A stretch of 64,000 nt of DNA from a virus. Taxonomy: Duplodnaviria > Caudoviricetes. Of this stretch, positions 16,311 to 46,469 are shown in pieces (position 1 is the first letter of the stretch; the number at the start of each line of letters is the position of its first letter). Below the pieces are notes generated by a model. The model searched no databases and had not been told where the DNA came from. It saw only the letters and a program-made list of their open reading frames with translations. The position numbers were made by a program, and so were the translations under genes. Where the stretch lies: the IMG/VR virus record IMGVR_UViG_3300025601_000007. One strand, written 5' to 3'.

Positions 16311-16799
16311 TTATTTCAAATTAATACTATATTTTTGAATATTTTTACTTATATAATCTTTTGCTGATTGGTATTCGTTAATATCATATTCAAAACTTTC
16401 TTCAGATGCAAACTCTTTACCTGCATAATTATCTATCAAATATTTAGAGTTTGTTATGTCCCAATCAATAACTGGATTTATATCATAAAAATCTTCATAT
16501 AAATCTTTAAGTTTTCTAACACCTCTTGCATCAATTATAATATTATGGTTATTTGGATGATAGCAAAAGGCATGAACAAAATTGAAATTATATTCAGCAT
16601 CTTCATCAACATCTTCAAATTCATCGTTAATTACCGCTATTTGATATTGTGGAAATATTTCATTCAACGCAACACAAAATGGAATACATTCACCACTCAT
16701 CCATTGTTCAATATCATTTTCATTTATTGTGTGATTTTCATTCACAAACTGCTTAAAGTTCTTAACTTTATCAATTATTTTACGCATATCTTCACTCAT
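16311..16799 (-). CDS. Cassette-borne protein with capsid-targeting-like N-terminus and a possible Cys-His-Asp (papain-like) domain
   Basis: MSEDMRKIIDKVKNFKQFVNE; GECIPFCVAL...HAFCY...IIDARG; ATATTTAT 13 nt upstream (16813-20). Confidence 0.7.
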   Translation of the reverse strand: MSEDMRKIIDKVKNFKQFVNENHTINENDIEQWMSGECIPFCVALNEIFPQYQIAVINDEFEDVDEDAEYNFNFVHAFCYHPNNHNIIIDARGVRKLKDLYEDFYDINPVIDWDITNSKYLIDNYAGKEFASEESFEYDINEYQSAKDYISKNIQKYSINLK

Positions 16800-25528: not shown

Positions 25529-26968
25529 TTAAGTATAATCTCCACCTATGGTCCAGTAGTATTTGGTTCCTGTGTAGTAGAATGTAACAATATCTTCACT
25601 ACCGCTATTTGAAGTGATGTTAAGCAACCCTCCTGCTCCATTAACAACAGCTGAGCTCCCTGGAGGAGCTAAGGCGTGTCCGCCTGAAGCATCTTGCTTC
25701 ACTAGAAGGGTGCCGTAGTCTCCTGCAGATACGTTACTTACATTTAAAGTGGTATCTGCAGTAAGGATTAAGAAAGCATTATGTCCGAACTCTAAATTCC
25801 AAATAGTGGTCGTGTTGAATGCAAGAGTCTGTGGTGCTCCACCTGTGTTTCCTGTTAATTGAGATACTAGCGCTATTGTCCCAGAAGCATCTGGAAGACT
25901 CCAGTTTCTATCAGCTGTGAGTAATGAACTAAAGTCGAGCCCAGCCATTCGTGTTCCATTGTAAGCTGATATAAAACCATTTCCGTTTGTTTGACTTCCT
26001 GATTTAAAGAATACGCCATCTTCTCTAAGGATGTCAAGTGTTTTCCCAACATATCTAAGAGCTCCATAAGTATCTCCTGTAATCATGAAGATGTCGTCTG
26101 AATCAGCGCGAACGCACCAATCACGGGCGCCAGAAGATGTTCTAAAAGTTAGGGATTCGCCAGAAATTGTTGGAGAGCCCTCAGTTACTATGTTGTTTTG
26201 AATAATGGTTTCTTGCCAGCTTTTATTTCCACCTCCTGATGTGAGCCCAGTCCATGCTCCATTTATATATTGAAAAAGGCCTGTGTTTGCAGAATACGCT
26301 ATGGCTCCGTCAGAAGTGTTTGTTGAGGGAAGCGTTGCTCCAGAAAATCCTCGCATTTGAATCATACCTTCCCAAGTGATTGCCGCAGCGTTGGCTCGTT
26401 CGCCCGCTCCTGTTCCTCCCCCAAGAATCATCCCGTAGTCAGTTGCTGTAAAAGAATTAGTCCCTTGTGGCTGCGCATATCGGCCAATAACCACTTGAGA
26501 GTTTCCAGAGGCTGTGTTTGAGAGTCCTCCAGCTGATGAGTATAAGGCTGAAGCAGTATTCCCACTACCTCCACCCACAAATGAATATGGGCTTGTTGCT
26601 GTATTATCTCCCTGGATTGTTAGCAACGATGTGGCTGTGGACCCAGATTTCCAATATGCAGACTCAACACTTGTAAAGTTTGTTTGCCCTGTGTAATCAT
26701 ATAGCGTTAACTGCGCCCAATCACTTGAAGTGTAGTCCCAGGGCGTCGAATTAAGTCTATAATACATTCGGACACCATTAGAAATGGTTCCAGCAATCAT
26801 ACCAGCTCTACGTCTTTGAACTGTAATTCCAGAGAGGACAGAACTGTCTCCTGAGAAATTTCTTAATCCATCAACGCCATAAATTGTGTCGGTTACTGGA
26901 TAAGTATCCTCACTGTCCGTAGGGGCTATAAACCCTGTTACTCTAACACTTCCTGGTATTGCTCCCAT
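25529..26968 (-). CDS. Tail-fibre/baseplate-like protein
   Basis: G.IAP.D..D.YP...RRRAGM N-terminus; NTASA/NTASG beta-roll repeats; Gly/Ser/Thr-rich. Confidence 0.65.
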   Translation of the reverse strand: MGAIPGSVRVTGFIAPTDSEDTYPVTDTIYGVDGLRNFSGDSSVLSGITVQRRRAGMIAGTISNGVRMYYRLNSTPWDYTSSDWAQLTLYDYTGQTNFTSVESAYWKSGSTATSLLTIQGDNTATSPYSFVGGGSGNTASALYSSAGGLSNTASGNSQVVIGRYAQPQGTNSFTATDYGMILGGGTGAGERANAAAITWEGMIQMRGFSGATLPSTNTSDGAIAYSANTGLFQYINGAWTGLTSGGGNKSWQETIIQNNIVTEGSPTISGESLTFRTSSGARDWCVRADSDDIFMITGDTYGALRYVGKTLDILREDGVFFKSGSQTNGNGFISAYNGTRMAGLDFSSLLTADRNWSLPDASGTIALVSQLTGNTGGAPQTLAFNTTTIWNLEFGHNAFLILTADTTLNVSNVSAGDYGTLLVKQDASGGHALAPPGSSAVVNGAGGLLNITSNSGSEDIVTFYYTGTKYYWTIGGDYT

Positions 26969-27867
26969 TATGTAATCGTTATATCAATTGCCGCGCCTAG
27001 AATATTCTTAGTCCTATATATCCTGTAATTTGTTGTTTGAGAGTTCCCGTTAGTCACGGATACGGTTTTATAGTGGAATCCATTTTCAGAACTTGCATAC
27101 CCCTCTGCTGTGCCTGCCATTACCAAGTTGAACCCTGTTTGGTCATCTTTGATTGTGTTTATTGCATCAAATGAGTCAGGTACACAGAAGTATTTATATC
27201 CACCAGCAGCAAGTGTCCATGTGCCAGCAATTGAAACAACTAAAGAATCCTCTGAAAGAGCTTCAATTTGCGTTTCGTTTAAAGCTGTGTTTGTTGAGGT
27301 TCCGTAATACATCTTCCATCTCCACTCCATTGTAAATGTTTTTGAAAAATCTACACTCTCTGAATCTGTTCCTTTTATTGTCCATTCGTGAGACCCAGGA
27401 GTTGTTTTCTGAATCGTTGCTCCTAGTGCCAAGTTTTCTGTGCTGTCATCAGCTAAAGATGAACCAAGTGTGGCTGTGTTGGTTGTGTCCACGATTAATA
27501 ACGTATTTCCTAGTACGTTAGCAGAGTTAGTTGTGGTCCAAGTGAATGTTTTTGTTCCTGATATAGACACTCCCGCCTCTACAACCACCGCTTGGCTATC
27601 TATTTCAAATGCTGAAAAAGCAGGATGTTGAAAGGGGTACAACAGAAGGTCGAACATTTGTTGAACATCGAAATTTCCCCCGAATGTTGTTCCTGCATCA
27701 ATACCACCTGCATCAATCGTTGTGGGGTCTGAGTTAGTGAAAAAACTACCTGAAAACCCAGTAACACTTCCTGTGGCCAGGCACATAAAATTGTCGTTAA
27801 TTTTATTCCTTCCTTCGTTAGGCGTGTCTTGTGGGTATATGTTGTATATGGTGCAGCCAGATGGCAT
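26968..27867 (-). CDS. Virion structural protein (Ig-like or beta-rich)
   Basis: GRNKINDNF motif, Thr-rich beta domains; CTATTTAT 16 nt upstream (27884-91). Confidence 0.65.
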   Translation of the reverse strand: MPSGCTIYNIYPQDTPNEGRNKINDNFMCLATGSVTGFSGSFFTNSDPTTIDAGGIDAGTTFGGNFDVQQMFDLLLYPFQHPAFSAFEIDSQAVVVEAGVSISGTKTFTWTTTNSANVLGNTLLIVDTTNTATLGSSLADDSTENLALGATIQKTTPGSHEWTIKGTDSESVDFSKTFTMEWRWKMYYGTSTNTALNETQIEALSEDSLVVSIAGTWTLAAGGYKYFCVPDSFDAINTIKDDQTGFNLVMAGTAEGYASSENGFHYKTVSVTNGNSQTTNYRIYRTKNILGAAIDITIT

Positions 27868-31953: not shown

Positions 31954-32229
31954 TTATTTCTTATTCCATCGCTCTGCGTAGGGGTGTTTTGCGTCATCCT
32001 CCTCGGACTGAACGTCAACATCTGCGAAATTAACTGTGTTGAATCTAACATTTGGAAAATCTTGAAGTATCACTGTGGAGCTTGAACTGTCAATCTCCGT
32101 TCGTTCTATTGCGTACTCTTTGTCTATCTCTAAATAGGATGCGACTCTTTTTTTGTCGCCACTCCAGCCTGAATGGCGGGTCTTTTCTGTGACTTTAACT
32201 CGAAAACCTTTTAGAGCCAGGATATTCAT
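31954..32229 (-). CDS. Hypothetical protein
   Basis: 91 aa ORF. Confidence 0.65.
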   Translation of the reverse strand: MNILALKGFRVKVTEKTRHSGWSGDKKRVASYLEIDKEYAIERTEIDSSSSTVILQDFPNVRFNTVNFADVDVQSEEDDAKHPYAERWNKK

Positions 32230-33060: not shown

Positions 33061-33377
33061 TATTTTCCGTCTTCTTCCTCCGTTCCGTCTGAATTATCTT
33101 CCAGTTCATCTTCTGAGCCGTCTTCATGGGAATGTTGTTCTTGTTCTTGTTTTTGTTGAGCTTTCGCTGTGTCTTCTTGAATTTGAGTCATAAACCTAAC
33201 AGCAACTTCTTGAGAGCGCTCCAGTCGAACAATTTGTTCAATAAAAGCTTTTACTTCTCTAATTGGGTCTCTAGTTAAATCGGAGTTATTCAGAGTTCTG
33301 CTAAGTCTGTCGTAGTGTAAGACTCTCTCAGCTTCACAGTCGTCATATACCTGACGTAGGATTCTGATATTATCCAT
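33060..33377 (-). CDS. Hypothetical protein with acidic tail
   Basis: 105 aa ORF overlapping its neighbours. Confidence 0.6.
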   Translation of the reverse strand: MDNIRILRQVYDDCEAERVLHYDRLSRTLNNSDLTRDPIREVKAFIEQIVRLERSQEVAVRFMTQIQEDTAKAQQKQEQEQHSHEDGSEDELEDNSDGTEEEDGK

Positions 33378-33927
33378 TCTTCTTGGCTTCTTTAATGGCT
33401 TCCATCGCCTGTACGGTTGCCAGGTCTACAATCTCTGAACTCTGCATCACCTCGTTTGCTCCGAAATAATTGACATTGTTTAAAAACTCACGAACATCTG
33501 TTTGATTCTTTTTAACTTTACGCTGCTGCTGTAAGTCAACTTCAACATTAACTCCACAAAGAAGCTTATCTAGTTGAATCACTTTATGCTTACTGTCAAG
33601 TCCTGCCCACACTGGTGCAAATACGCAAATCACATAGTCGTATCTGTCGTCTACAACTTGTTCGATTTCACTTCGAGCGATAATGTATCCCGCTACAAAC
33701 TTGCCCCCGTCTTTCTTTGGTTTGTTTGAGTAAAGAAACTTAATTCGGCTGATTTCAATGTCTTGGTTGTGGGCACATCTTCTTTTAATGAAAGCTGAAA
33801 TTGCATGCATTTCATCATCTGCATCCATGTAAGGAACTTCGTAAGGAATGTCTGGTGTAATTGCGGTGTTATCTAATTTAGAAAAAACCATGTCTGAAAA
33901 ACTCTGTGTTGACTCTGTTGTGTCCAT
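33370..33927 (-). CDS. Phage metallopeptidase-like fold lacking HExxH
   Basis: IKFLY..KPKK.GGK..AG...DYVICV...W..LD......LDKLLCGV; start at MDTTES. Confidence 0.65.
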   Translation of the reverse strand: MDTTESTQSFSDMVFSKLDNTAITPDIPYEVPYMDADDEMHAISAFIKRRCAHNQDIEISRIKFLYSNKPKKDGGKFVAGYIIARSEIEQVVDDRYDYVICVFAPVWAGLDSKHKVIQLDKLLCGVNVEVDLQQQRKVKKNQTDVREFLNNVNYFGANEVMQSSEIVDLATVQAMEAIKEAKKNG

Positions 33928-33930
33928 GTT

Positions 33931-33954
33931 GTTGTGTTGTGTTGTGTTGTGTTG
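33931..33954. repeat. (GTTGT)n pentanucleotide microsatellite
   Basis: 4.8 copies between a TATATTG motif and ATG 33927. Confidence 0.85.
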
Positions 33955-33989
33955 CACAATATAATCAAACATCAATTCATAACAAAGGA

Positions 33990-36203
33990 CTACCGTTTAT
34001 TAAAGGTTAAGCTTTTAGTTAAAGGACTTAGTGTGGTGTCTGACTTTAAATCGAAAACCAAAAGATTCCCTTCGCTGTCATAACCAGTGTTTTTGTAATG
34101 TGTATCAGTTAACCCAATCTCATCGCACTTATTTTTAAGTTCATAGAAATCTTTTTTATCTATTTTTCCCGTGTTTAATTTTTGAGTTATAACGACATAG
34201 AAATTGCCTATATCTATTGGGTAGTCTCTTAGGTATAAACCATTTCCCTGAGGGTTATTAATTTTGTAAACAGCCATTATTTTAGCCACAAATGGAAGAG
34301 GATTTTGGTGAAAGTAATTACTGGTTTCCGCTTCTATTTTGCTCATTGTGACTTTACACATAAAGCCTTGACCTTCGCTTATCCATCCATCGTTTGTACG
34401 GCGAGTTTTTTTTAGAGTTATGCCTAAACTTGCCTCAATTGATTCAATTAATTCTTCTATGCGAATATTTTCACCTCTATAGTTGCTTAGGCTTTTGCTT
34501 GAAACATTTTCGTCTATGCTTGACCAAAAAGCTTTTGCATCGTCGCTTCTACCTTCTTTTGAAATTTGAAACCCATTGTCAGATGAAATTTTTTGGACAA
34601 CCTTAATTAGCAGGGTATATATCCCTTGTCTTCGGTATTTTTGATTTACTTCAGCTCCTCCTATTCTTAATGTGTTTGATTTAGAGTCAATATTAAAACC
34701 AACTCTCCCAACGGGTGTTAAATTCTCAGTTGAGGCTTTGATAGTTAAAGAACGATGTAAACCTGGTGTCTTAAATATTGAGATTGCTATTGGAGTCCCT
34801 TTTATAGTTGTCGCAATATATCCTATACCATTATATTTATCAATGATATTGTTTTCTTCTTTATATCTTTTCTCAGGAGGAATGTATTTATAATTGTATT
34901 TAGTCTTCAACAAATCGATATACTTCTGATTTTTTTCAGCCTTTGGATTCAAGTCGACAACATCAGTGTACATCTGAATGGCTTCGTCAGACCCAGTTTG
35001 TTCCGACAAGCTCTCAGCCTCGATTATTTTAATCTGCTCAGATTCAAATACAACAATCTCATCACCTGCTATTATCGAATCGTGCCCTTCTTGTTTTATC
35101 GCGTTAGTCCAATCATCTGAATTTTGGCCCAAGTCGGTAAGGTAGTCCATTCTTACGTCTTCTTCGAAGTCGTAAATCAGTTTGGGCTCAATCCCAATCT
35201 CTCGAAGTTCTTCTACTGAGAAATCGTTTACTCCTCTTCCGTATCTGGTGCCCTGAGTTTCTTCGTACCAGTCAGACACAATGTTTAGGTCTAAGCCTGT
35301 TTCTCCTTCGTATGTGTCAGGGTGCTTAGTTTTAAACTCTTCCCACCCACGGCTATGGTCTTTGTTTTTAGTGATAGATGCAAGAAGATTAAAAGCGACA
35401 ATGTCTTTTGTCTTTAATTGCAGAAGCAAGTCTTTAAGGTCAATAGCTACAACTGTTTTTTTTGGGAGATTTAATTTATATTTTTCTCCAATACGCACAA
35501 GGCTGCTTTCGTTGACATAAAAAGGGTTTTTCATATCCAAGCGTACAGAAAGAACTTCACCAGTTCCTCCGAAGAATTCTGAAAAGCTTCTGGCTTTTGA
35601 TTCTGTATCTGTAAAATAAAATCCCTTACCAAAATGGCCATCATTCCCACTGGTGGAGCCTATTTGTGATTTATCAAAAGAAGCAAACTTTCCCTTAGGG
35701 CCTACGCCATGATAATAAATGTTTTGGGTAGTATTTTCTTGAAGATACGACTTAATGTTTCCACTTCTAAAGAAGTCTACATCGAATGGATTAAGGCCTC
35801 TCTCTGGCTCGTGCCAAGGTGCTTTTGTTTTATGAATTTCGTCTTTGGTATCCACACCAACTATTCCTACATACCTTCCAAAAGAGCTAGAGCCTGGGGT
35901 TGGGTCAAAATATTCTTTTTTATCGGCATCATAAACCCACCAGTGTTCAATGGGGAAATCGTTTTCAAAAGCGTATCCCTTTACGGGATACAGATTTTCA
36001 TTAGGCCTGTTGTGAATGTAATGAAAGACATTAGTTTCACACTTATTTGACTTTGATTTATCACACTTGATTGACGTAACCTCTCCAGAGCTAAGGCTAA
36101 TACCATTTTTACTTTTGGATATAGCAACAATGTCTGGATGATTATGATAATCCTCTAAGACTTCTCTGATAAGTTTTCGTATGGAGTTTATTTCTGAAGC
36201 CAT
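33990..36203 (-). CDS. Polyvalent protein: Cys-His-Asp domain, ADP-ribosyltransferase-like, GNAT and kinase-like domains
   Basis: IRKLIREVLE; CETN..EHWWVYD..YFDPT; YYHG..FGKGFYFT..DEIVVFE; EVNQKYRRQGIY..SDDAKAFW; DTHYKNTGYD..LLVFDL. Confidence 0.78.
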   Translation of the reverse strand: MASEINSIRKLIREVLEDYHNHPDIVAISKSKNGISLSSGEVTSIKCDKSKSNKCETNVFHYIHNRPNENLYPVKGYAFENDFPIEHWWVYDADKKEYFDPTPGSSSFGRYVGIVGVDTKDEIHKTKAPWHEPERGLNPFDVDFFRSGNIKSYLQENTTQNIYYHGVGPKGKFASFDKSQIGSTSGNDGHFGKGFYFTDTESKARSFSEFFGGTGEVLSVRLDMKNPFYVNESSLVRIGEKYKLNLPKKTVVAIDLKDLLLQLKTKDIVAFNLLASITKNKDHSRGWEEFKTKHPDTYEGETGLDLNIVSDWYEETQGTRYGRGVNDFSVEELREIGIEPKLIYDFEEDVRMDYLTDLGQNSDDWTNAIKQEGHDSIIAGDEIVVFESEQIKIIEAESLSEQTGSDEAIQMYTDVVDLNPKAEKNQKYIDLLKTKYNYKYIPPEKRYKEENNIIDKYNGIGYIATTIKGTPIAISIFKTPGLHRSLTIKASTENLTPVGRVGFNIDSKSNTLRIGGAEVNQKYRRQGIYTLLIKVVQKISSDNGFQISKEGRSDDAKAFWSSIDENVSSKSLSNYRGENIRIEELIESIEASLGITLKKTRRTNDGWISEGQGFMCKVTMSKIEAETSNYFHQNPLPFVAKIMAVYKINNPQGNGLYLRDYPIDIGNFYVVITQKLNTGKIDKKDFYELKNKCDEIGLTDTHYKNTGYDSEGNLLVFDLKSDTTLSPLTKSLTFNKR

Positions 36204-36775
36204 CTTTGATAGTCTTGCTTTGTTGCTTGAACAAGCGCTTTAATGTATTGGTCTTGGTTTAATTTTGCCTGAGTAACTCTATGATTACCATCATAGAGCA
36301 TAAACAAGTCTTGGTCAGAATCGTAATGGACCTCGATGGGTTTCGCATCAAATAAATCAACGCCCTTCTGGAATTCATATTCGTTTCCTTCGTCATCTGA
36401 CCAGCTTCCAGGAGTTGGGTCCAAGCCGTCTATTTTATCCACGGGTATCATCATTAAAAGCCCGTGCTCCAGATGATAATTTCCACCTAGCTTTACCATC
36501 TCAGCCTGAGTAAATACTTGTCGACTGAGAAGTTTGGAGTTGAGATTTGAGGGTGAACGTTTAGCAGGAGCTTGGTCCAAACCAAAGTGCGCCACCAATG
36601 CAGGAATATTAAATGCTAAAAACCGAATAAGGTCATTTTTGGAATCAGGCGAGTACAGACGTTTTTCACCTCTATAAAGATTTAGGTTGTCATCCAATGA
36701 AAAATCAGATAACTCAATCTCTAGAAGCGCTTTTCGTATAGCACGTCGAACCTCATTTACGGTGCCTTGAGCCAT
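36188..36775 (-). CDS. ParB/Srx-like domain protein with VRRAIRKALLE motif
   Basis: KPIEV...LYDGNHRV.QAK. Confidence 0.72.
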   Translation of the reverse strand: MAQGTVNEVRRAIRKALLEIELSDFSLDDNLNLYRGEKRLYSPDSKNDLIRFLAFNIPALVAHFGLDQAPAKRSPSNLNSKLLSRQVFTQAEMVKLGGNYHLEHGLLMMIPVDKIDGLDPTPGSWSDDEGNEYEFQKGVDLFDAKPIEVHYDSDQDLFMLYDGNHRVTQAKLNQDQYIKALVQATKQDYQRWLQK

Positions 36776-36785
36776 TAAGCCTTAG

Positions 36786-38561
36786 TTAAGAGTTTAAATT
36801 GTCTTTTTCACTTATTTTTTTATCGTACTGCTCTTCAGAGATGATGTTAGACAATAATTGTCGTCTCAGTTGTTTGTCTGGAAATCTTACGAAGTCAACT
36901 TTTTCTTCAACTTGAGCATCTTCAGAGAGGAGGTTTTCCATTCTCTCTTCAAACTGCTCCTCTGTAATTATCTTTGACAAGAGCTGCAATCTTAGCGTTT
37001 CTTGAATATTCTTCTTTTTGTTCATTATTTTTTTGTTTTGTGTTGCGTTCTTTGCCTTAGTCCAAACCGAGTGGTTTCTTGAGTTATTGGTTTTCATCAT
37101 GGTTGCTGACATTGAGCCCATACCATCGTTCATCCCATATCCACCACCACCAACTCTTCGCATATGCTCTTTAGTTCGCATGTTACTGTCGTGAGTTCCA
37201 GCCAAAGCTCTATCTACCCACATTTTAGCGGCATTACCGCCATGTAAATCCCACTCTGGACTTCCAGCTTGATTGTTGTCAAAGAATGCTTTTAGACGCT
37301 TCATTTGAGCATGCGTTTGAATTCCTCCGTCCGCAAGGTCTTGGGCTTTTCTTACTCCACTACCCTCGTTACCTCCATTAGCAGTTTGGCCGCCACTAGA
37401 GATAGCGCGACGAACAGTGCTTTTTACGTTTTCTGGCGGAGAAAAAGACTTATTATTATTGAAGCCAAAACGCTCCAGCAAAGCTTCTCTGATGAAATTA
37501 CGAATTTCACCAATACTTCTATCATGAAGGTCAAACGCCTTTAGTTTACCATTTTTATCGTAGCCCATATTTTCTGGACGCATATCAGAGGCTTCAATGC
37601 CTAATGCGCGAAATGCTCTATTGATATCATCTAGTTGGTCTGCGAATTCTTTCACATCGTCTGGGGCGTCTGTTTCGTCCCAGTCCATTGAGTGTGTATA
37701 CTGAATAGGCAACCCTTGCTCTTCCATGTAGCTGCTGACTTGATAGTAGTAATCCTCTATTTCAGAGTCAATTTCTAACTCCTCCATTAAAATCCACTTT
37801 TCTCCTTCAACAAGCTCGGCAGCATAAATATCTGCAAACACTTTAAATACAGGAGAGGTGTCTCCGATAAGCCGCTTAGCTATATCAAACTCGCTTACAG
37901 CCGTTGTTTTTTTTAAAACTCGGTCTCCATTGACATAATATGCCTCACCAAAATCTCCCTTACCCGCCCAACTGATTGAGTCGGGGTCGATGTTGTTTTT
38001 TGCATAAAAATCCTGTTGAGTCATACTGTACTCTGTTGTATTTTCGGTTAAAGACATAACTTGGTCATAGGTTTCTAATTTTACGAGCTTAGGTTTCGCT
38101 GAATGCTTTAATGCTATTTCATTTTCCCAAAACTGCGTGCTTCTCTCCCATAAAGAAACTGCCGTGTCAATGTCATCACTGCTAATCTTTGCAGTTAGCC
38201 GATAGAGAATATCTCCTCTTAATTTTACCTCCCTAGGGCTAATGTGTGTAAGCATGTCCCAAAATGCACGCTCTTCATGCTGTTTAGGATTTGAGTACCA
38301 GCTGATTCCTAAATTGGTTTCATTTAACTTCTCCCCTGGCTTCATTGCAATAAGGCGATAAATTAATGGATTTGAGGGGGTGTCACCAAACCCATGAGGC
38401 CAAAGGCTTTTTATAGACTGATGAAAATCTTCAACAGCACATTCTTTTGCCTCATCCAAAGAATTAGCCTCATCCCAACACCCGCTAGATTCGTAAACCC
38501 CAGTCAAACCCCACTCTGCTACTTCAAGTAGTTCATCATATGATAAGTTCTCGAATCTCAT
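36786..38561 (-). CDS. Polyvalent protein: unknown domain, kinase-like domain and head-associated-type domain
   Basis: AGKGDFGEAY..VLKKT..ILMEEL..DMRPENMGYD..KAFD; IRNFIREALLE; PPENV...QMKRLKAFF..WDLHGGNAAKMW; QLLS.II.EEQ x2. Confidence 0.75.
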   Translation of the reverse strand: MRFENLSYDELLEVAEWGLTGVYESSGCWDEANSLDEAKECAVEDFHQSIKSLWPHGFGDTPSNPLIYRLIAMKPGEKLNETNLGISWYSNPKQHEERAFWDMLTHISPREVKLRGDILYRLTAKISSDDIDTAVSLWERSTQFWENEIALKHSAKPKLVKLETYDQVMSLTENTTEYSMTQQDFYAKNNIDPDSISWAGKGDFGEAYYVNGDRVLKKTTAVSEFDIAKRLIGDTSPVFKVFADIYAAELVEGEKWILMEELEIDSEIEDYYYQVSSYMEEQGLPIQYTHSMDWDETDAPDDVKEFADQLDDINRAFRALGIEASDMRPENMGYDKNGKLKAFDLHDRSIGEIRNFIREALLERFGFNNNKSFSPPENVKSTVRRAISSGGQTANGGNEGSGVRKAQDLADGGIQTHAQMKRLKAFFDNNQAGSPEWDLHGGNAAKMWVDRALAGTHDSNMRTKEHMRRVGGGGYGMNDGMGSMSATMMKTNNSRNHSVWTKAKNATQNKKIMNKKKNIQETLRLQLLSKIITEEQFEERMENLLSEDAQVEEKVDFVRFPDKQLRRQLLSNIISEEQYDKKISEKDNLNS

Positions 38562-45902: not shown

Positions 45903-46469
45903 ATGCGACGAGGCAAAAAAGCCCAACCTAAGAGACAGGATAAATTCACACACAGAGTCAACCATCAGATTAAAGTACTAGAGGTACGGTTAACAGGTGA
46001 TAGTGACAAGTTTGTATCAGGAGAAGTGTATAAGACCGAAGAAGCTAAAAACATAGCGGCAAGTCTTGAGCTTGATTTAATAGAGATTTCCCCAAACGCA
46101 AAGCCTCCTGTATGTAGAATTATAGAGCTTGGTAAATTTAAATATGAAATCAAAAAGAAGGCGCGAGAGCAAGAAGCTAAGCAGCGAATAGCAAAAGTTG
46201 AAACAAAAGAGATTCGTTTAGGGCCAACAACTGGTCCAGGTGACTTAGACTTTAAACGCGCTCATGCAATCAGCTTCCTGGAGGATGGAAACATTGTCCG
46301 TCTAAGCATGTTTTTCCGTGGCAGAATGATTGCAAATAAAGAAATTGGCCAAAAGCTAATGCTAGAGTTTGCGTCCTCCCTTGAAAGCTATGGGATACCG
46401 TTAGCGTTACCTAAGTTCGAAGGAAAAAGACTAAAAGTGGATATTAAGCCCAAGCCTAAACAAAAATAA
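45903..46469 (+). CDS. infC: Translation initiation factor IF-3
   Basis: VNHQI..EVRL, LDLIEISPNAKPPVCRI.ELGKFKYE, KEIRL..GDLDFK..AISFLEDG..V.....FRGR. Confidence 0.92.
   Translation: MRRGKKAQPKRQDKFTHRVNHQIKVLEVRLTGDSDKFVSGEVYKTEEAKNIAASLELDLIEISPNAKPPVCRIIELGKFKYEIKKKAREQEAKQRIAKVETKEIRLGPTTGPGDLDFKRAHAISFLEDGNIVRLSMFFRGRMIANKEIGQKLMLEFASSLESYGIPLALPKFEGKRLKVDIKPKPKQK

Follow-up and report, generated by a model that had tools for sequence, protein, structure and literature searches.

Phage polyvalent proteins, as described by Iyer, Burroughs, Anand, de Souza & Aravind (2017, PMC5512222), combine several unrelated effector enzymes in one polypeptide. Among their modules are ADP-ribosyltransferases (ARTs) of the ART-PolyVal clade, for which an H-Y-D configuration is described (PMC5512222), and a protein kinase without a C-lobe, known in polyvalent proteins mainly from phages and prophages of Bacteroidetes and Verrucomicrobia (PMC5512222). 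The ART-PolyVal family was defined from polyvalent proteins that are delivered by the virion or co-transferred with DNA (PMC5512222, PMC9503650). They are viewed as arsenals that the phage injects; how the individual domains are released is known for almost none of these proteins, and the published model is that of embedded peptidases. A second point of reference is phage T4, in which capsid-targeting propeptides of 10–20 residues load even foreign proteins into the head (PMC9026906, PMC5694885). T4 Alt, itself an ART, enters the head, undergoes processing by gp21 and is then injected (PMC9026906, PMC5512222); gp21 prefers to cleave at I/LxE (PMC12991175), and the propeptide of T4 gp23 comprises 65 residues (PMC9026906). 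Here we describe a 737-amino-acid protein, P0001, which is encoded by a single open reading frame (ORF) with an ATG start on the minus strand of a 64,000-nucleotide stretch of IMG/VR virus record IMGVR_UViG_3300025601_000007; this whole stretch is referred to below as the window.

P0001 contains four unrelated domains of effector-enzyme type, and the junctions between them carry a three-residue motif, [LI]xE, which also ends its N-terminal leader (Table 1). Since this junction motif is conserved, and a T4-type protease and capsid module is encoded in the same genome, we regard it as plausible, and on balance lean towards the view, that the prohead protease cleaves P0001 inside the head, into which it is packaged, and that the products are injected together with the DNA.

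The window belongs to a 109-kb virus record which, as CheckV puts its completeness at 31%, is a fragment of a jumbo phage; from its sequence the carrier is classed as an uncultured T4-type jumbo phage. Identical copies of P0001 occur on metagenome contigs from 43 index blocks, some of these contigs exceeding 200 kb. Nucleotide and tblastn searches with the P0001 ORF against 50,697 GenBank phage records gave no match, and a scan of IMG/VR returned one weak relative, restricted to the GNAT domain. Comparison of 20 neighbouring ORFs with PHROGs and Pfam gave almost no matches.

Table 1. Features of the P0001 locus and the head-module protease; positions refer to the window unless a contig is named
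Feature	Position	Strand	Description
Whole ORF, P0001	33990..36203	-	polyvalent effector polyprotein (putative); 737 amino acids plus stop
Leader	36153..36203	-	residues 1–17 (MASEINSIRKLIREVLE); amphipathic helix ending I-R-E14 and V-L-E17; candidate capsid-targeting propeptide
Domain 1	35736..36152	-	residues 18–156; small Cys-His-Asp/Glu domain, ends in YLQE156
Domain 2	35001..35735	-	residues 157–401; ART-PolyVal ADP-ribosyltransferase (predicted activity), ends in IIE395 and SLSE401
Domain 3	34509..35000	-	residues 402–565; GNAT acyltransferase (predicted activity), ends in SIDE565
Domain 4	33993..34508	-	residues 566–737; protein-kinase-like, without C-lobe
Downstream gene	33370..33975	-	201 amino acids; PhageMetallopep homologue (PF18894, E 2.1e-8)
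Upstream gene	36188..36775	-	195 amino acids; overlaps the P0001 gene by 16 nucleotides; leader VRRAIRKALLE, then ParB/sulfiredoxin-like LYDGNHR
Second polyvalent gene	36786..38561	-	591 amino acids; N-terminal domain without assignment, SLTE junction, mini-kinase (about residues 175–347), Gly-rich C-terminal part
gp21-like Peptidase_S77	L071:6614-8431, about 70.7 kb past the window end	-	605 amino acids, with LAGLIDADG intein; PF03420, 80.9 bits, E 1.1e-22

The four domains

The original prediction had seen four modifying domains in series behind an N-terminal IREVLE and separated by YLQE, SLSE and SIDE, and the motifs do lie where it placed them (residues 12–17, 153–156, 398–401 and 562–565, respectively). 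The catalytic residues, checked for each domain in turn, are likewise present. A composite alignment of the whole protein, prepared for folding, misaligned the relatives of domains 1 and 4; for this reason only these two domains were folded, each alone, and domains 2 and 3 were assigned from profiles.

Domain 2 matches PF18760 (ART-PolyVal) with 44.9 bits (E 2.5e-11), above the Pfam cut-off of 31.2 bits, and its H165, Y196 and D375 form the H-Y-D triad; on these grounds it is an ART-PolyVal domain with predicted ADP-ribosyltransferase activity. A helical insert of about 120 residues lies within it. It is 51–59% identical to the first ART of the related proteins P0002 and P0003, and across seven ART copies the YHG and GxD motifs are invariant. 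This match, together with the fit to the proteins of PMC5512222, bears out the earlier assignment of P0001 to the phage polyvalent proteins.

Domain 3 is a GNAT domain with predicted acyltransferase activity. Its acyl-CoA loop reads RRQGIY (residues 524–529, with R524 and G527 of the R-x-x-G signature). An exhaustive search recovered 24 relatives, 22 of them at E ≤ 1e-10, which occur as stand-alone genes or embedded anywhere in proteins of up to 1211 amino acids. PF00583 is matched by 20 of 23 family members (best 8.6e-8); P0001 by itself scores 20.4 bits, just under the cut-off of 20.7. The family profile also matches GNATs of solved structure, among them 3dsb at 1.4e-5. An ORF elsewhere in the window (16311-16799), with an FKQFVNE leader, was considered as a stand-alone GNAT paralogue and rejected, the hhalign probability being 0.1%.

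Domain 4 is 172 amino acids long and has the signature residues of a protein kinase, namely the beta3 lysine (K617), the alphaC glutamate (E624), the catalytic loop D700-x4-N705 and a DFG-like D718, and the protein stops 19 residues past D718. Its ESM-Atlas model resembled Pkinase, APH and T7-kinase clusters at weak template modelling (TM) scores of 0.55–0.66. The AlphaFold2 model was of low confidence (predicted local distance difference test, pLDDT, 54), and its Foldseek list, also weak evidence, consisted almost entirely of protein and aminoglycoside kinases. One distant relative was found, in addition to a paralogue two genes upstream and a remoter one in the multi-domain protein P0004, and the catalytic segment is kept in four sequences. 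A word-index search for further relatives returned only a truncated copy of P0001 itself, and comparison of the domain profile with PDB sequences gave nothing meaningful. From the signature residues and the models, the domain appears to fit the C-lobe-less kinase of PMC5512222.

Domain 1 and the C-terminus of P0004, a protein which also has kinase-like, ParB-like and GNAT-like segments, share 78% identity; the stand-alone relatives of domain 1 are 156–166 amino acids long. The family alignment contains invariant NKCETNVF and P-x-EHWWVYD motifs, and an acidic residue before (P/V/I)-T-P. From this alignment C55, H87 and D100 are the candidate catalytic residues: C55 and H87 are kept, position 100 is acidic across the relatives, and D92 is likewise invariant. 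In the AlphaFold2 model (pLDDT 73) the Cys lies at the N-terminus of a helix, with the His and Asp on the hairpins that follow.

The fold of domain 1 was less readily placed. VIA-align gave weak scores (Z ≤ 4.1) and a list rich in transglutaminase-like folds, the top rows being pseudomurein isopeptidases (PeiW), Ntaq1, arylamine N-acetyltransferases (NAT), LapG, factor XIII, protein glutaminase, vasohibin, and several effector deamidases and proteases. The ESM-Atlas model reached TM scores of 0.40–0.46 with Transglut_core clusters; Foldseek returned only E ≥ 0.09 against PDB, and uncharacterised proteins alone among the clusters of the AlphaFold database. In a one-genome search domain 1 matched neither PF01841 (Transglut_core) nor PF24591 (YunG-like), even at E ≤ 10. 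Pfam searches with six family members gave no match apart from the unrelated DUF5661, and the domain profile found nothing meaningful among PDB sequences. Thus, of the C-H-D hydrolase/transglutaminase proposed originally, the catalytic residues are in place, but Pfam offers no match and the fold support is weak, so that the name transglutaminase applies weakly and at the level of fold. On this evidence we take domain 1 to be a new small family whose Cys-His-Asp site is probably of the transglutaminase/papain-like type.

Junction motifs, leaders and the head module

Domain boundaries were taken from the end-points of homologues, the motifs being ignored. The homology of domain 1 to P0004 begins at residue 18, and the stand-alone relatives of this domain stop at the residue aligned to Q155/E156. 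Relatives of domain 3, whether stand-alone or fused, start at about 405–409 and end at about 560–566, and the sole relative of domain 4 aligns from residue 575. The boundaries so defined coincide with the [LI]xE motifs, the linkers of the original prediction among them. The Glu of an [LI]xE falls in a 15-residue window at p=0.18, and in all four junction and leader windows at about 0.001, a value calculated post hoc.

Homologous junctions repeat the motif. Of 21 GNAT-module relatives, each representing one 50%-identity cluster, 17 have [LI]xE no more than 16 residues upstream of the module, against a background of 0.187. Its spacing to the module varies, and it is therefore not part of the GNAT fold. 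Where a further domain comes after the GNAT, the relative in every case has, shortly behind the module, either [LI]xE (in one slightly beyond the 16 residues) or a GG linker; most of the relatives without the upstream motif likewise carry a GG linker. Junctions in ART-rich relatives read NIYE|S, SIYE|S and NLSE|S, and P0004 has DLNE|NEYHNHP ahead of the domain 1 that it carries.

In P0019, P0011, P0018, P0010, P0006 and P0008, which are distant polyvalent relatives of the GNAT module, [LI]xE is replaced by a (Y/F)-x-(K/D/N/E)-G-G-(E) linker that recurs; P0019 has nine copies (e.g., YAKGGE). Judged from these sequences, the GG linker might represent another junction code, one read by a different protease.

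The leader of P0001 (MASEINSIRKLIREVLE, with the glutamates E14 and E17) falls into the 10–20-residue size class and ends in I/LxE; AlphaFold2 places a helix at residues 2–19, with low confidence. Similar leaders head unrelated ORFs of the same phage, as well as relatives of domains 1 and 3: stand-alone modules open with amphipathic leaders ending in [LI]xE, such as MHIVEIIREE, MDIIKIINEE, MKQLIKLLVRQNLLE and MKRLIENRIKLLFE. Leaders are also found internally, between domains, in P0004, in P0029 and in the 591-amino-acid neighbour, where IRNFIREALLE stands between the mini-kinase and the Gly-rich part. Modules have thus been shuffled among proteins with their leaders kept. In the ORFs of this phage, 6 of the 12 matches to the longer amphipathic leader pattern fall within residues 1–25, an N-terminal bias. 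To our knowledge, the leader of P0001 (IRKLIREVLE type, about 14–17 residues) has no sequence similarity to the capsid-targeting sequences of T4, although no T4 leader was compared with it in this analysis.

Within the 109-kb record no Peptidase_S77, no Gp23 and no T4 portal was found; the protease and Gp23 were reached via overlapping metagenome contigs. In this contig walk, which used exact protein look-ups, overlaps were 9.97–12.7 kb at 99.9–100% identity, the first contig overlapping the record by 11.1 kb at 100% identity. The head module so reached has the T4 gene order of gp21-like protease, scaffold and Gp23. The scaffold-like protein is acidic and has 461 amino acids; the major capsid protein matches Gp23 at E 5.7e-75. 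Four of the five [LI]xE of the capsid protein lie within its first 60 residues, and its L58-N59-E60 aligns exactly with L63-T64-E65 of T4 gp23, which we take to be the maturation cut site. The capsid protein, carrying the same code at the T4 maturation site, provides an internal control within the genome.

The intein of the gp21-like protease sits directly after GELDHPD. Its exteins align with T4 gp21 at GELDHP/GELNHP and SSRGVGS/SSRGLGS, stretches which in T4 hold H85 and S140 (residue numbering assigned in this analysis), the pair mutated in catalytically dead gp21 (PMC12991175). The cleavage code that the original prediction had noted as apparent therefore finds a counterpart in the I/LxE of T4 gp21 (PMC12991175) and in a gp21-type protease of the same genome.

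The layout with an intein in the protease is common to five IMG/VR jumbo-phage records, one of them a complete genome of 299 kb that has terminal repeats, and no relative of P0001 was found in these five. A metagenome pattern scan did not return the phage's own contigs. The PhoH gene near the protease has a LAGLIDADG insert as well.

Proposed delivery and processing

We infer from sequence the packaging, cleavage and ejection of P0001, together with the activities and targets of its enzymes. The amphipathic leader, 14–17 residues long and resembling a capsid-targeting sequence, would steer P0001 into the prohead core, where the gp21-type prohead protease would cut after Glu, in the leader at E14/E17 and at the junctions E156, E395/E401 and E565. 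Four separate enzymes of about 16–28 kDa would be released: a Cys-His-Asp hydrolase/deamidase-like enzyme, an H-Y-D ADP-ribosyltransferase, a GNAT acyltransferase and a C-lobe-less kinase. These would be ejected with the DNA and would modify proteins of the host as infection begins, in the manner of T4 Alt.

A number of observations weigh against this course of events. P0001 has 10 [LI]xE where about 8.6 are expected, so there is no overall excess, and five of the 10 lie inside domains (E240, E335, E584, E587 and E610). Bare [LI]xE in residues 8–22 is not enriched either (27 of 125 ORFs of the record, against 18% in the control; p=0.17), and AlphaFold2 puts YLQE in a low-confidence helix, not in an obvious loop. 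Moreover, there are polyvalent proteins that enter the virion without being cut, the N4 virion RNA polymerase among them, and the plasmid ArdC/TraC1 polyvalent proteins also travel uncut (PMC5512222). P0001 might accordingly be packaged and injected in one piece, [LI]xE being an ordinary acidic feature of flexible linkers or helix ends and the enzymes working while tethered. We consider this unlikely. The bare motif is common, and it is its position that counts: it recurs at homologous junctions in relatives of less than 50% identity with variable spacing, a second group of relatives has a recurrent GG linker in its place and not random sequence, entire leaders are kept between domains, and the phage has a protease of the matching specificity class.

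P0001 might also not be virion cargo but, like T4 ModA/ModB, a cytoplasmic multi-enzyme for host takeover or anti-defence that is synthesised once infection is under way; in that case the shared N-terminal helices would have another role, for example in oligomerisation, localisation or translation. The head module is about 98 kb from the P0001 gene, with no direct link between them. The window has 14 copies of the octamer TATAAATA, which resembles the T4 late promoter, against 3.7 expected (none of 100 shuffles reached 14), yet directly upstream of the P0001 operon no such box was found on the coding strand. That P0001 stays in the cytoplasm nevertheless seems improbable to us, given that ART-PolyVal was defined from proteins which travel with the virion or the DNA (PMC5512222, PMC9503650), that the leader is capsid-targeting-like in length, position and terminal [LI]xE, and that the gene lies in a same-strand block with late genes of tail-fibre type, recognised by eye, a few kb downstream.

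Least probable of the alternatives is processing, before packaging or after injection, by domain 1 as a papain-like self-peptidase or by the neighbouring metallopeptidase homologue: the papain/transglutaminase-like catalytic layout of domain 1, the PhageMetallopep gene directly downstream and the published model of release by embedded peptidases (PMC5512222) speak for it, but P0002 and P0003 share the junction code without domain 1 or a recognisable peptidase, single-domain proteins bear the same leader plus [LI]xE, HExxH occurs nowhere in the metallopeptidase homologue, and cutting after Glu in [LI]xE is a known habit of gp21-type enzymes. The persistence of the code in peptidase-free relatives, and the lack of HExxH in the adjacent homologue, argue for a protease acting in trans.

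A wider reading can tentatively be offered, in which the injected effectors of T4-type jumbo phages might be built from portable units of the form "leader + [LI]xE + enzyme domain". Such units could be fused in any order because a prohead protease acting in trans would separate them in the head. Other lineages would possess a Y-x-K-G-G-E linker and a different protease, and the junction motifs would constitute a grammar from which cargo and cuts could be predicted.

Neighbouring genes and comparison with known systems

Of the genes next to P0001, the upstream one specifies a protein that has no match in Pfam or NCBIfam, the latter having returned nothing for P0001 either; from its motif it appears, by eye, to be ParB-like. 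The 591-amino-acid product of the second polyvalent gene has two LLS(K/N)II(T/S)EEQ(F/Y) repeats at its C-terminus. The downstream PhageMetallopep homologue may, judging by its sequence, be a derivative that is inactive or not a zincin. Two ORFs of 479 and 299 amino acids (window 25529-27867, minus strand), located on the same strand as the polyvalent cluster and a few kb downstream of it, have tail-fibre-like N-termini (e.g., KINDNF, by eye). A 91-amino-acid ORF (window 31954-32229, minus strand) has a precomputed match to PF27001 (Phage_T4_Y07B), a further link to T4-type phages, and a 188-amino-acid translation initiation factor, IF3, with IF3_N and IF3_C domains is encoded at 45903-46469 on the plus strand (precomputed Pfam matches on identical contigs).

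With the polyvalent proteins of PMC5512222, P0001 shares the joining of several unrelated effector enzymes, an ART-PolyVal that is Tox-ART-HYD2-like and has the H-Y-D configuration, a GNAT beside the ART, the C-lobe-less kinase, ParB-like modules nearby and heavy domain shuffling. The combination singled out by the original prediction is indeed present with all four domains, but is less unusual than was thought, since ART and GNAT neighbours and C-lobe-less kinases have already been described. P0001 differs in lacking the four peptidase superfamilies of that study (zincin MPTase, assemblin-like, DD and LonC), in its Cys-His-Asp domain of probable transglutaminase/papain type, in its conserved [LI]xE junctions and portable leader, and in being carried by a T4-type jumbo phage; the words "transglutaminase" and "linker" do not occur in the text of PMC5512222.

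The internal proteins of T4 and Alt (PMC9026906, PMC5694885) share with P0001 a short N-terminal propeptide ending in [LI]xE, both phages encode a gp21-type protease, and Alt is likewise an ADP-ribosyltransferase. However, each T4 cargo protein has one function, and Alt, an R-S-E ART, is not related to ART-PolyVal, whereas P0001 would yield four enzymes by internal cuts. Giant phages phiKZ, 201phi2-1 and SPN3US also possess many head-internal proteins, the ejection or inner-body proteins, in which gp21-like proteases cut behind the Glu of a three-residue motif before the proteins are ejected (PMC5694885, PMC7411985). Their motif is S/A/G-x-E or A-x-E, their propeptides exceed 100 residues, and the processed proteins are not known as strings of independent enzymes. 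The T7 gp0.7 protein kinase (cited in PMC5512222) and the phage GNAT Rac (cited in PMC7824862) are precedents for early modification of the host transcription and translation machinery; unlike what is proposed for P0001, they are single proteins which are made after entry and not packaged. The relation of P0001 to the T7 kinase is limited to the resemblance in fold to Phage_T7_kinase clusters.

Thus neither the class of protein nor three of its four domain types are new. The polyvalent-protein papers searched did not, however, contain a conserved junction code that fits a T4-type prohead protease acting in trans, nor portable leaders, nor the Cys-His-Asp domain. If the proposed scheme is true, junction motifs and leaders would predict virion-delivered effectors in uncultured T4-like giant phages, the free shuffling of modules would be explained, and the Cys-His-Asp domain would bring a fourth enzyme type into the range of modifications open to a phage at entry. 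Beside the published model of embedded peptidases, the sequence of P0001 suggests an alternative, namely that the protease of head maturation may act in trans and free the domains at a code of three conserved residues.

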